From Escherichia coli (GTDB lineage Bacteria; Pseudomonadota; Gammaproteobacteria; Enterobacterales; Enterobacteriaceae): 64,000 nt of DNA. The stretch lies in NCBI RefSeq assembly GCF_003334305.1, contig NZ_QOWS01000008.1. One strand, 5' to 3'. The notes under the pieces were generated by a model. It was not told where the DNA came from. It did no database searches and saw only the letters and a program-made list of their open reading frames with translations. Numbering within the stretch: position 1 is the first letter of the stretch; every line of letters begins with the position of its first letter. The position numbers were made by a program, and so were the translations under genes. Below are positions 19,129 through 55,121 of this stretch, in pieces.

Positions 19129-19619
19129 TGACTAAAACCCAAATAAATAAATTAATAAAAATGATGAATGATTTAGACTATCCATTTGAAGCACCGCTCA
19201 AGGAATCATTTATTGAAAGTATAATCCAAATAGAATTTAATTCTAATTCAACTAATTGCCTGGAGAAGTTATGTAATGAAGTTAGTATTCTTTTTAAGAA
19301 TCAACCTGATTATCTTACTTTTTTAAGAGCAATGGATGGATTCGAAGTTAATGGATTACGATTATTTAGCCTCTCGATTCCAGAACCTTCAGTTAAAAAC
19401 CTTTTTGCCGTAAATGAATTTTATAGAAATAATGATGATTTCATAAACCCTGATCTACAAGAACGGTTAGTGATCGGGGATGATAGCATTTCAATATTTA
19501 CTTATGACATTAAAAGTAACTTTTTTGAAATTAGAGATAATATTGGCACAGAAAATATATTCAGTTCGTTTAGTGATTTCTCTTCATTCTTAAACGAAAT
19601 CATGGACAGTTGTTCATAA
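19125..19619 (+). CDS. yrhA: putative cognate immunity protein of the Hcp-HNH toxin
   Basis: 164-aa acidic ORF whose ATG overlaps the yhhZ stop (ATGA); same AT-rich composition; position corresponds to yrhA, which in K-12 is disrupted by IS1 (no IS1 here). Confidence 0.6.
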   Translation: MMTKTQINKLIKMMNDLDYPFEAPLKESFIESIIQIEFNSNSTNCLEKLCNEVSILFKNQPDYLTFLRAMDGFEVNGLRLFSLSIPEPSVKNLFAVNEFYRNNDDFINPDLQERLVIGDDSISIFTYDIKSNFFEIRDNIGTENIFSSFSDFSSFLNEIMDSCS

Positions 19620-33665: not shown

Positions 33666-33706
33666 TCGTCAAGTTTGATTTCAAAAGTGATGACCAACGA
33701 GAAATT

Positions 33707-33806
<100 letters not shown>

Positions 33807-33864
33807 TGAAGCAACGTACTCGATATTAGCAATTTGGCGGCAACCCAAAGTTGCCGATTAATGA

Positions 33865-34968: not shown

Positions 34969-35187
34969 CCTGAGAATCCCCATTCTTCTGGTTATTACGT
35001 GTGTTGTGGTGTTGTGATTCAGCACTTTATTTCGTTTTATGCATGACTACCCGTGCTTTAGCAGCATACTCTGCTAAAACATACCCCATTTTTATGATAT
35101 TGGAATAGCTATTTTGACAGTTTATTAACAATCTGCGTGGGGATTGACGTTTTGCCGGAGGGGGAATTGATTATTGTAGAGGCCCAA

Positions 35188-35218
35188 AAAACAAAAACCC
35201 CGGACTCTCATCCAGGGT
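35188..35218 (-). terminator. Rho-independent terminator of rpoH
   Basis: Minus strand: CCCUGGA-UGAGAG-UCCGGGG hairpin followed by UUUUUGUUUUUU, 20 nt after rpoH stop. Confidence 0.7.
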
Positions 35219-35238
35219 TCTCTGCTTAATAGCGGAAA

Positions 35239-36093
35239 TTACGCTTCAATAGCGGCGCGAAGTTTTTTCATCGCGTTCTTTTCCAGTTGGCGCACACGTT
35301 CAGCGGAAACACCGTAACGGTCAGCCAGTTCCTGCAACGTGGACTTGTTGTCTTCGTCCAGCCAGCGCGCACGGATGATGTCCTGGCTGCGTTCGTCCAG
35401 ACCCTGCATCGCGTCGGTCAGACGGTTTGCCGCCTGCTCTTCCCAGTTATCATCTTCGATGCCGTCGGCAAAGTTAGATGATTTATCCTGCAGATAGAGC
35501 ACCGGTGCCATCGGCTGGCTGTCGGAATCGTCGTCGGAAAACAGGTCAAAGGTCATGTCCTGTGCCGCCATACGTGATTCCATCTCACGTACGTCTTTGC
35601 TGGTTACGCCCAGTTCACGGGCCACCATTTCAACTTCATCCTGATTAAACCAGCCCAGACGCTGCTTGGTTTTACGCAGGTTGAAGAACAGTTTGCGCTG
35701 CGCTTTGGTAGTCGCAACTTTGACGATACGCCAGTTACGCAGAACGTATTCGTGGATCTCTGCTTTGATCCAGTGGACGGCGAAGGAGACCAGGCGCACA
35801 CCCACTTCCGGGTTGAAACGGCGCACTGCTTTCATCAGGCCGATGTTACCTTCCTGAATCAAATCCGCCTGTGGCAGGCCATAGCCCGCATAATTACGAG
35901 CAATATGAACAACAAACCGCAGGTGAGACAGGATCAGCGTTTTAGCTGCTTCCAGATCGCCATGGTAATGCAGCTTTTCAGCCAGCGCCCGCTCCTCGTC
36001 AGCCGACAACATCGGCCACGCGTTAGCTGCCCGGATGTAGGAATCCAGGTTGCCAACTGGGGCTAAAGCTAAACTTTGCATTTTGTCAGTCAT
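35239..36093 (-). CDS. rpoH: RNA polymerase sigma-32 (heat shock sigma factor)
   Basis: 284-aa [76 protein letters not shown]. Confidence 0.97.
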
Positions 36094-36186
36094 TCAAATC
36101 CTCTCAATCGATATCTTCTGGCGCTTCAGTGGTAGCAACAACTGTGCCAGAGCTTAAGAGCAACGAGGTTATCATTCACTGTTTTA

Positions 36187-36213
36187 TCAGACCGTGATTT
36201 TATCCACAAGTTC
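36187..36213 (-). promoter_or_regulatory. sigma-E-type promoter (rpoH P3) overlapping a DnaA box
   Basis: Minus strand reads GAACTTGTGGATAAAATCACGGTCTGA: -35 GAACTT, 16-nt spacer, -10 TCTGA; a perfect TTATCCACA DnaA box lies at 36200..36208 on the plus strand. Confidence 0.65.
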
Positions 36214-36336
36214 AATGCAAGCTTGTGAATAAATTACGCACAAAATGTGACATAGAGATGAAATACCGGGAAGAGACAACGGGATCTCTTTCCCTGCTAC
36301 GGAACCCATTGCAGGGAAGAGTATAACACGCTTTTA

Positions 36337-37395
36337 TTATTCAGGCGTAAAGTGGCGTAAATGTTGTACCGTGGCAAGCCACGCTGCCACCCAGCCAATC
36401 ATCGAGCATACCAGCAGCAATAGCAGGCATTCATCGAACGATAAGCCATTGATATCAAACTTCGTTCCGAAAACCTGTGCCACTTCTGCAACCGCCGATG
36501 ACAAACGCAGTACCAGAATTTCTGACAAAATTAATGACAGCAATGCGCCAGAAAATCCCAGCAGTGCGCCACCATACAGGAACGGGCGAAGGATGAAACC
36601 ATCCGTCGCACCAATCAGTTTCTGCACGTTGATGGAGTCACGGCGAGCAAAGATGCTCAGACGTACGCTGTTGCCGATGACGAGGAACACTGCCGCCACC
36701 ATCAACACGCCGATCATCGCCGAAACGCGCCCGACCAGCCCGGTCAACGCCGCCAGACGGGCAAACCAGCTGTCATCCATCCGCACTTCGTCAATGCCGT
36801 TAATCTGCGTGATACGATCACGCAGCGTATTGAGTGATTCCGTCCCCTGAAAATCGAGTTTCGGGATCACCACCGCCACTGCCGGAAGCGGGTTTTCTTC
36901 CAGCATATCCAGCGCACCACCAAAACCAGACCAGTTACGGAACTCGCCCAGTGCGTCTTCACGAGAAAGATAGTTCACTTTCTCCACGCCTTGCTCGGCC
37001 TGCAACTGTGCCACCACGCCCGCAGCGGCGTCATCGTCCAGCGTTTTTTGCAAGTAAACAGTGATTTGCGGTGACGGATAATACTGCGTCGCCGCCTGAT
37101 TAACGTTTTTGTACACCATATAACAGACGCTGGGCAGCGTCAGGGAGATGGCGATAACCATCACCGTTAAAAACGTGGCGAACGGTTTGCTTTTCAGATC
37201 CTGCAATGCGCCGTGGAAGGCATAGCGCACCTGTTCGTTGAAAACGTTGGTTTTACGATTTACCGGTTTTGGCGAGGATTTCGCGCGTTTCGGGGCGTTA
37301 CGACCGCCGTCGCCAGAGCCGCCGACCGATTTACGGAAGCGATCAAGACGCCCGCCAAACTGCCGAATATGATTGATTGCATCGCGCTTATTCAT
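36337..37395 (-). CDS. ftsX: cell division ABC-transporter-like permease
   Basis: Recognised protein starts [26 protein letters not shown] at ATG 37395 (352 aa); overlaps ftsE 3' end by 8 nt. Confidence 0.94.
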
Positions 37396-54298: not shown

Positions 54299-54329
54299 GT
54301 TATTTCTGAAACGAGGAAAGAAAAGATAT

Positions 54330-54362
54330 TAACTGAACTTAATTTATAAAATTAAGTTCAGT
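54330..54362. terminator. perfect 33-bp palindrome (15-bp stem, 3-nt loop), bidirectional terminator candidate between nikR and the hicB-like gene
   Basis: AACTGAACTTAATTT-ATA-AAATTAAGTTCAGTT read directly from sequence. Confidence 0.55.
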
Positions 54363-54417
54363 TGCATAGATAGATCCTGTAAAGGCAGATATTCTGCGTA
54401 ATGTACGCCGCTAAAAT

Positions 54418-54777
54418 TTATAAATGATTCAAACGCTCATTCAGTGTTTCAATAATATAGGTATTAACAGAGACTTGTTGCTGCGCAGCCGCATTATTAA
54501 GGCGTTCACTCAGCGATTCTGGATAGCGTAACGTAAAGGTCTTAATCTTTTCTGTACGCGCATACGGCTCAATACCCGCAGCTTTACAATCCTCAAGATA
54601 CTCTCGCAGGGAAAGTTCCCCTTCTTTTTGCAGCCCCTGAATGCTGTCAGAGACAAAATCACAATAACCTGACAAGCCCAGGAATTTGCCACGAAATGCA
54701 TTCAGTTCTGGCACGTAAGTGATAACTGCAGGTTGCCCGGCAATCTCCATAGAGTTTGGCGTCTTCAGTTTGATCAT
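54418..54777 (-). CDS. HicB-family antitoxin candidate with C-terminal ribbon-helix-helix DNA-binding tail
   Basis: 119-aa ORF; RHH-like C-terminus TFTLRYPESLSERLNNAAAQQQVSVNTYIIETLNERL; 4-nt ATGA overlap with upstream HicA-like ORF. Confidence 0.6.
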   Translation of the reverse strand: MIKLKTPNSMEIAGQPAVITYVPELNAFRGKFLGLSGYCDFVSDSIQGLQKEGELSLREYLEDCKAAGIEPYARTEKIKTFTLRYPESLSERLNNAAAQQQVSVNTYIIETLNERLNHL

Positions 54778-55049
54778 GGTTTTACCCCTATACTTAGTAA
54801 CCAGTCACGCACGCTTTCTACAGCGCCTTTATCGGTATCTGGCGACGGATGAGGCCGATGGAAACACGCAACGCTCATATTTAGTATGAACTTACAACGC
54901 GAACCTCTTCCTTCCTTAATTTCTCCGCCTAATGCTTTAACCAGTGACTCTATATCAGACCACTTGATCCCTTGAGGAACAGGAGTTTTAAATATTTGAT
55001 CCAATGTATTTTTTTGTTTCTTCCGTAAAGCCTGTACCTTGGTTCTCAT
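54774..55049 (-). CDS. HicA-family (YcfA-like) mRNA-interferase toxin candidate
   Basis: 91-aa basic ORF MRTKVQALRKKQKNTLDQIFKTPVPQGIKWSDIESLVKALGGEIKEGRGSRCKFILNMSVACFHRPHPSPDTDKGAVESVRDWLLSIGVKP with the conserved His-Pro core; toxin-first order typical of hicAB. Confidence 0.6.
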   Translation of the reverse strand: MRTKVQALRKKQKNTLDQIFKTPVPQGIKWSDIESLVKALGGEIKEGRGSRCKFILNMSVACFHRPHPSPDTDKGAVESVRDWLLSIGVKP

Positions 55050-55050
55050 G

Positions 55051-55102
55051 GCATGTCCTTATGACTTCACTTTATGACATCAATAGTATGACATCACAGT
55101 AT
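55051..55102 (-). promoter_or_regulatory. operator-like repeat cluster upstream of the hicA-like gene
   Basis: Direct repeats TATGACATCA (55062..55072 and 55077..55086) nested within inverted repeat ATGACTTCA ... TGAAGTCAA, directly 5' of the toxin start. Confidence 0.45.
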
Positions 55103-55121
55103 GAAGTCAAGTTTCCCTTCC

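Follow-up and report, generated by a model that had tools for sequence, protein, structure and literature searches.

The 243-bp gap between ftsX and rpoH in the 64-kb stretch of DNA analysed here (the window) carries a sigma-E-type promoter overlapped by a perfect DnaA box, with a second, inverted DnaA box 15 bp away upstream. Taken as a whole, this arrangement is very probably best explained as rpoH P3, a promoter read by sigma-E, under repression by DnaA through the overlapping boxes. According to this explanation, RNA polymerase with sigma-E (RpoE) would recognise GAACTT-N16-TCTGA and start P3 at about A36180, and envelope stress and extreme heat would raise sigma-32 synthesis via P3; DnaA would occupy the high-affinity box 1 over the -35 element and spacer as well as the inverted box 2 in the UP-element zone, and the bound protein would occlude RNA polymerase, repressing both P3 and the overlapping sigma-70 promoter P4. 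The sigma-E dependence, the in vivo DnaA binding and the repression are supported by the literature on the identical K-12 sequence, and we infer the exact P3 start and the steric mechanism.

A composite sigma-E/DnaA promoter of rpoH is already known for E. coli. The region joins three circuits, namely envelope stress (sigma-E), cytoplasmic folding (sigma-32) and the replication initiator DnaA, a link established towards the end of the 1980s and later borne out by genome-wide work. Seeing it in one more E. coli genome brings no novelty, and the practical value of the case is that of a positive control, in that a reading of the sequence alone found a documented composite promoter to the base.

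The rpoH locus and its sigma-E promoter

The window is a piece of the E. coli chromosome with the gene order ftsYEX-rpoH-livJ, syntenic with K-12. All positions given below are window positions, and adding 3564690 gives the MG1655 coordinate. The first-pass annotation had placed its motifs in the upstream region of rpoH, and the interval concerned, 36094..36336 on the minus strand, is exactly the whole ftsX-rpoH intergenic gap. The bordering genes and the elements of the promoter core are as follows.

36337..37395, minus strand: ftsX coding sequence, the upstream neighbour and final gene of ftsYEX, with its stop codon at 36337..36339
36232..36224, minus strand: box 2, DnaA box TTATTCACA, which fits TTATNCACA (motif scan)
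36211..36219, plus strand: TTCAATGCA, weak "double DnaA box" partner (Table 1 of PMC11317965)
36213..36208, minus strand: P3 -35 element GAACTT (unique pattern match)
36200..36208, plus strand: box 1, consensus DnaA box TTATCCACA (perfect 9-mer)
36207..36192, minus strand: P3 spacer of 16 nt (sequence)
36193..36208, minus strand: CRP-like half-sites TGTGG-N6-TCACG (8/10 consensus match)
36191..36187, minus strand: P3 -10 element TCTGA (unique pattern match)
36180, minus strand: predicted P3 start, an A, inferred from the spacing rules of PMC1312014 and equal to MG1655 3600870
36093, minus strand: beginning of the rpoH ATG, which borders the intergenic region
35239..36093, minus strand: rpoH coding sequence (sigma-32, 284 aa), identified from the ORF list, the RefSeq annotation of the identical locus and BLASTP

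When the gap is aligned with that of MG1655, 241 of the 243 aligned bases are identical and there is one 1-bp gap. One difference is a 1-bp deletion (TTT to TT, 36317/36318); the other, at 36284, is a C-to-T substitution. Both fall in the distal P1/hairpin part and leave the P3/DnaA core, which lies further downstream, untouched: over the 150 bp that run from box 2 through the ATG, the alignment is 100% identical. As the window core is identical to that of K-12, experimental results obtained in K-12 transfer directly to it. A 451-bp query spanning the intergenic region found a match of at least 90% identity in 5426/5426 complete E. coli genomes, invariably between ftsX and rpoH. The deletion and C-to-T alleles are common, many E. 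coli genomes being 100% identical to the query. The RpoH protein itself is identical to that of K-12 at 283 of 284 residues (BLASTP against MG1655). Codon 185 (35541..35543), in the acidic linker of regions 3-4, encodes F185 here and S185 in K-12; the F185 form is a natural allele, found as WP_000130214.1 in strain H15, and the S185 form is WP_000130217.1, present in K-12 and six other strains.

The rpoH-sense strand through the core reads TTGAACTTGTGGATAAAATCACGGTCTGATAAAACAGTG. Within it, the GAACTT and TCTGA hexamer pair is indeed correctly spaced, as had been proposed, and the combined pattern GAACTT-N16-TCTGA occurs only once on both strands of the 64-kb window, for a mean of 0.03 in shuffled sequences (one match or more in 3 of 100 shuffles). 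The published rules for sigma-E promoters ask for a GGAACTT -35 element, a (T/C)GGTCAAAA -10 element and, as a strong preference, a 16-nt spacer, together with a discriminator of 5 or 6 nt, a distance of 26 or 27 nt from -35 to +1 and a purine start (PMC1312014). Here tGAACTT (36214..36208) agrees with the -35 consensus at 6/7 positions, and CGGTCTGAT at the P3 -10 has a CGGTC prefix that is exact for the extended (T/C)GGTC motif. With the predicted start at A36180, the discriminator would measure 6 nt, the -35 hexamer would be 27 nt away and the leader would be 87 nt long; on that basis spacer and -35 to +1 distance lie within the ranges taken to define sigma-E membership (15-19 nt and 25-28 nt, respectively). 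This start, MG1655 3600870, presumably corresponds to the database entry for rpoHp3. The sequence geometry and, reportedly, the published start-site mapping support the identification of these hexamers with the mapped P3 promoter. TCTGA agrees with the TCAAA consensus at 3/5 positions only, which counts against the P3 assignment; in the orthologous rpoH set, a TC-initial -10 with variable later bases is the rule.

P3 resembles the promoters of the RpoE regulon (Rhodius et al. 2006 model) by its GGAACTT-type -35, its 16-nt spacer, its TC-initial -10, its short discriminator and its A start, and differs from them by TCTGA in place of TCAAA, by the repressor sites within its core and by an overlapping sigma-70 promoter with high sigma-E-independent activity. 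Sigma-32 is itself part of the conserved core of the sigma-E regulon, and sigma-E promoters have A/T-rich UP elements upstream, the zone in which box 2 falls (PMC1312014). The K-12 rpoH P3 is a standard sigma-E reporter (rpoH P3::lacZ) and in vitro control promoter, and rpoH expression is described as RpoE-driven in the K-12 literature; with an identical core in the window, the envelope-stress input that had been suggested from the motifs is supported. An rpoH fragment covering -65..+20 shows high sigma-E-independent activity in vivo, which is expected if a sigma-70 promoter overlaps P3.

According to reviews, rpoH is controlled from multiple promoters by RpoD, RpoE, RpoN, RpoS, DnaA, CRP and CytR, a picture with which the first-pass annotation was in agreement, and papers summarise CpxR, IHF and ZraR as further regulators. 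Compared with the K-12 rpoH region (P1, P3, P4, P5 and P6, with DnaA, CRP and CytR sites), the window has the same locus, the same P3 hexamers and both DnaA boxes.

DnaA boxes and their conservation

Box 1, TTATCCACA, is the sole perfect DnaA box in the 64-kb window. Such a box anywhere in 64 kb, with 0.47 expected, is unsurprising alone; for a box that overlaps the single 27-bp sigma-E match, the rough expectation is 0.47 x 35/64000, or about 3e-4. It had been described as a consensus box contained in the spacer, and this has to be refined: the perfect box does overlap the promoter, but it lies on the strand opposite the P3 hexamers and shares one base, 36208, with the final T of the -35 element, its remaining 8 bases being the first 8 of the spacer. 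Relative to the predicted P3 start, box 1 spans -28..-20. Box 2, TTATTCACA, which was absent from the earlier description, spans -52..-44, in UP-element territory, and is inverted relative to box 1.

Of the 5426 E. coli genomes, 3740 carry the 65-bp core (36176..36240) without any change. When eight E. coli alleles were aligned, the most divergent ones included, both hexamers and both boxes were invariant in 8/8, and variation in the core was limited to the three bases after box 2 (AGC, AAC or GCG) and to the spacer base G36193, changed to T. Citrobacter werkmanii and Enterobacter sp. also keep the two hexamers and the two boxes, in the form of two blocks, TTTTGTGCGTAATTTAT(T/A)CACA and GGAACTTGTGGATAAAATCAC(T)GTCTGATAAAAG, between which about 10 bp are scrambled. 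Such kept blocks around a scrambled interval are a clean phylogenetic footprint of the promoter and its two boxes. Box 2 reads TTATTCACA in Enterobacter and TTATACACA in Citrobacter, with variable flanking bases.

Among the 5426 genomes, the allele that diverges most (94.9%) is that of E. coli DCE7, a pig isolate (L083). Its rpoH 5' leader contains an A-to-G substitution and 9 bp duplicated in tandem (TTGCTACCA); these changes correspond to window positions of about 36136..36144, downstream of the promoters.

For a wider comparison, one RpoH scan of representative genomes gave 80 loci from gamma- and beta-proteobacteria. At 26/80 loci the 300 nt preceding rpoH contained the pattern GAACTT-N16/17-TC in the sense orientation; the antisense, coding-region and far-upstream controls each gave 0/80, and shuffled sequences 0.6 on average. 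This is the pattern that was counted; a narrower -10, TCN[AG]A, misses Pseudomonas, Pasteurellaceae and Shewanella (TCAAT, TCTTA, TCTAT). Sigma-E-type examples include GAACTA-N16-TCTCA in Acerihabitans, GAACTT-N17-TCTTA in Pasteurellaceae and GAACTT-N16-TCAAT in Pseudomonas. DnaA boxes were not found upstream of rpoH in Photorhabdus, Acerihabitans, Pantoea symbionts, Vibrio, Pasteurellaceae, Shewanella or Pseudomonas, and many of the genera without boxes still carry a sigma-E-type rpoH promoter. The promoter is kept in many genera and the boxes are confined to close enterics. The sigma-E input is therefore ancient and the DnaA input lineage-specific, a speciality of the close relatives of E. 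coli that the design does not depend on. The same view, an ancient sigma-E input and a DnaA input confined to the close relatives of E. coli, was reportedly expressed by Ramirez-Santos et al. in 2001.

One candidate box, TGTGGATAA at 103 nt upstream of rpoH in Vibrio hannami, was rejected as a chance match: it is absent in two other Vibrio, and there is no sigma-E-type promoter at that place. The upstream regions of the Vibrio rpoH genes (L009, L010, L019) have in common, at about 60-90 nt, the sequences CCCCTGCTTGAAA / CCCCCTTCTTGAAAA, whose resemblance to a sigma-32-type -35 (CTTGAAA) hints at rpoH autoregulation, with no obvious sigma-E-type promoter.

DnaA binding in vivo and rival readings

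In a DnaA ChIP-seq study of 2024, rpoH is among the 16 regions bound in vivo, and the rpoH sequence printed there, tTTATCCACAagTTCAATGCAa, is that of window positions 36199..36220 on the plus strand (PMC11317965). Genome-wide, 13/32 consensus boxes were bound in vivo, the rpoH box among them, and the rpoH peak was the weakest of the 16, at 4x over the control (PMC11317965). The same paper, which was the sole match of a full-text literature search with the promoter sequence, defines a "double DnaA box" as two direct boxes with a gap of 2-3 bp (PMC11317965). At rpoH the partner TTCAATGCA lies 2 bp from box 1 and overlaps the -35 hexamer; it agrees with the DnaA box at only 4/9 positions, which makes it a weak and doubtful partner. 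In reviews and array work the gene is listed as DnaA-repressed, with Wang & Kaguni 1989 as the source (PMC11317965, PMC8203912, PMC2500167), and as de-repressed in dnaA46 or on DnaA inactivation (PMC2500167). The replication-initiator input that had been proposed from the motif is therefore backed by binding on the identical sequence and by this listing. Given the weak peak and the 4/9 partner, the physiological strength of DnaA control at rpoH is uncertain.

The coordinates in PMC11317965 are stated to be those of NC_000913.2, and the rpoH peak at 3600944 fits only the NC_000913.3 numbering, in which the box is at 3600890..3600898 and rpoH at 3599929..3600783.

Other DnaA-repressed promoters (dnaA, mioC and uvrB/DARS1, among others) are like rpoH in having the consensus TTATCCACA over the core promoter, bound in vivo. 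Unlike them, rpoH has its second strong box inverted and 15 bp off rather than in a direct 2-3 bp "double box", shows the lowest ChIP occupancy of the set, and has a promoter read by an ECF sigma factor.

The main alternative reading accepts the sigma-E promoter and takes the DnaA boxes as weakly occupied or titration sites, kept by descent, that do little to regulate rpoH under normal conditions. We regard it as unlikely. It draws on the low rank of the rpoH peak, on the argument that a good double box is necessary (PMC11317965), with such a poor partner at rpoH, and on the fact that Photorhabdus, Acerihabitans, Vibrio, Pasteurellaceae and Pseudomonas do without boxes and yet the sigma-E-type promoter is kept. 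However, the boxes stay invariant in diverged E. coli, Citrobacter and Enterobacter while the intervening bases change, which is a signature of selection, and both the reported de-repression of rpoH on DnaA inactivation (PMC2500167) and the place of its box among the 13 of 32 that are bound in vivo (PMC11317965) speak for regulation. A very unlikely reading, in our opinion, takes the TGTGG-N6-TCACG motif primarily as a cAMP-CRP site, for a CRP/CytR complex, and the DnaA match as a by-product of the half-site TGTGG and its neighbouring ATAA. The CRP-like site coincides with box 1 and the P3 spacer, it matches the consensus at 8/10 positions, and rpoH is a documented CRP/CytR target with sites kept in the close relatives of E. 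coli; but CRP-like matches of this quality are at chance level in the window (17 found for 23 expected), the base G36193 of the right half-site is a T in strain AR_0006, Citrobacter and Enterobacter whereas 9/9 box bases are invariant, and ChIP-seq detects DnaA at this place (PMC11317965). The CRP and DnaA readings of the same 16 bp are not mutually exclusive, and this site is possibly part of the published cAMP-CRP/CytR control, a lead only.

Short motifs do arise randomly, and with 0.47 perfect DnaA boxes expected per 64 kb one might ask whether hexamer pair and box are functionless chance matches in an AT-rich intergenic region. We give this practically no credence: the pair is expected 0.03 times per window and a box inside it about 3e-4 times, the footprint is conserved, and binding and reporter data from K-12 concern the identical sequence. 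Conservation and the published data have effectively refuted it already. A sigma-E-read P3 repressed by DnaA is the reading that we retain.

CIRCE operators and other features

Repressor sites over the rpoH promoter take another form outside the enterics. The CIRCE (HrcA) operator TTAGCACTC-N9-GAGTGCTAA was found upstream of rpoH at 36 of the 80 loci, all of them non-enteric, with 19 perfect copies, at 50-180 nt upstream of the rpoH match (L022, L028-L030, L036, L038, L039, L041, L047, L050, L051, L053, L054, L056, L057, L059-L070, L072, L074-L079, L081, L082). The control regions of the 80 rpoH loci contained no CIRCE. At 17 of the 36 loci GAAC precedes the start of CIRCE by exactly 15 or 16 nt, other offsets occurring 0-1 times each, and at these 17 a sigma-E-type -10 ("TC...") begins at the final two bases of the CIRCE left arm. 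CIRCE thus overlaps an ECF-type promoter in a fixed register, at a place matching that of the E. coli DnaA box. The presence of CIRCE upstream of rpoH is documented in Geobacter sulfurreducens (PMC545781) and in this sense known.

Like the E. coli promoter, these CIRCE/HrcA promoters have a repressor operator over a sigma-E-type rpoH promoter in fixed register; unlike it, they respond through HrcA to chaperone/heat status, DnaA sensing replication-initiator status. A tentative and rather doubtful idea is that the sigma-E-type rpoH promoter is an ancient, conserved module that different lineages have fitted with different operators in one and the same place ("operator swapping on an ECF promoter"). 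If so, the operators of Escherichia, Citrobacter and Enterobacter would be DnaA boxes, which cover the -35, the spacer and the UP zone, and those of many beta- and gamma-proteobacteria would be CIRCE elements whose left arm supplies the -10 "TC"; E. coli would then exemplify a general design. Lineage-specific operators over a conserved sigma-E-type rpoH promoter could merit a small dedicated survey.

The distal part of the intergenic region contains two further elements.

36328..36320, minus strand: extended -10-like TGTTATACT, candidate distal sigma-70 P1 (read from the sequence)
36317..36271, minus strand: two adjacent hairpins downstream of the ftsX stop (RNA fold)

TGTTATACT lies just past the ftsX stop, in a block that is conserved as TATAAT in Citrobacter and Enterobacter (TATACT here). 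It probably belongs to P1, the distal sigma-70 promoter reportedly described by Erickson et al. 1987, which would start near 36313, about 220 nt before the ATG. The hairpin pair (-26.2 kcal/mol, z = -2.4) is situated inside the putative P1 leader and has no T-run after it; a generic promoter/terminator scan detected no intrinsic terminator after ftsX. That scan returned a single sigma-70-like site, overlapping the start codon, and is uninformative for P1, P4 and P5. Scanning 35000..36600 against Rfam (E <= 1) found nothing, so that neither the rpoH leader nor its thermosensor falls under a curated RNA family. Of the two differences from MG1655, the C-to-T substitution at 36284 replaces a G-C pair in the second hairpin by a G-U pair, and the 1-bp deletion at 36317/36318 is located after the putative P1 -10 (TATACT) and before the first hairpin.

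Elsewhere in the window, the 6.7-kb rhsB-yhhH-yrhC-yhhI block of K-12 (nikR-yhhJ) is absent, and about 0.8 kb is found there instead (54305..55121). The ORFs 54774..55049 and 54418..54777 (minus strand) at this site form a HicA toxin/HicB antitoxin pair, according to Pfam (HicA PF07927, E = 3.7e-9; HicB PF05534, E = 3.5e-15), and NCBIfam gave no match for either small ORF. The IS1E element that splits yrhA in MG1655 (3583428..3584195) is also absent, its flanks joining at about 19506..19514 with the 9-bp IS1E target present once, and yrhA should therefore be intact. Finally, the 109 bp at 33702..33810, between panM/panZ and livJ, align in reverse orientation, at 84% identity, with a segment located between ugpB and livF (K-12 3592559..3592667) and look like a copy of a REP/BIME-type intergenic repeat.
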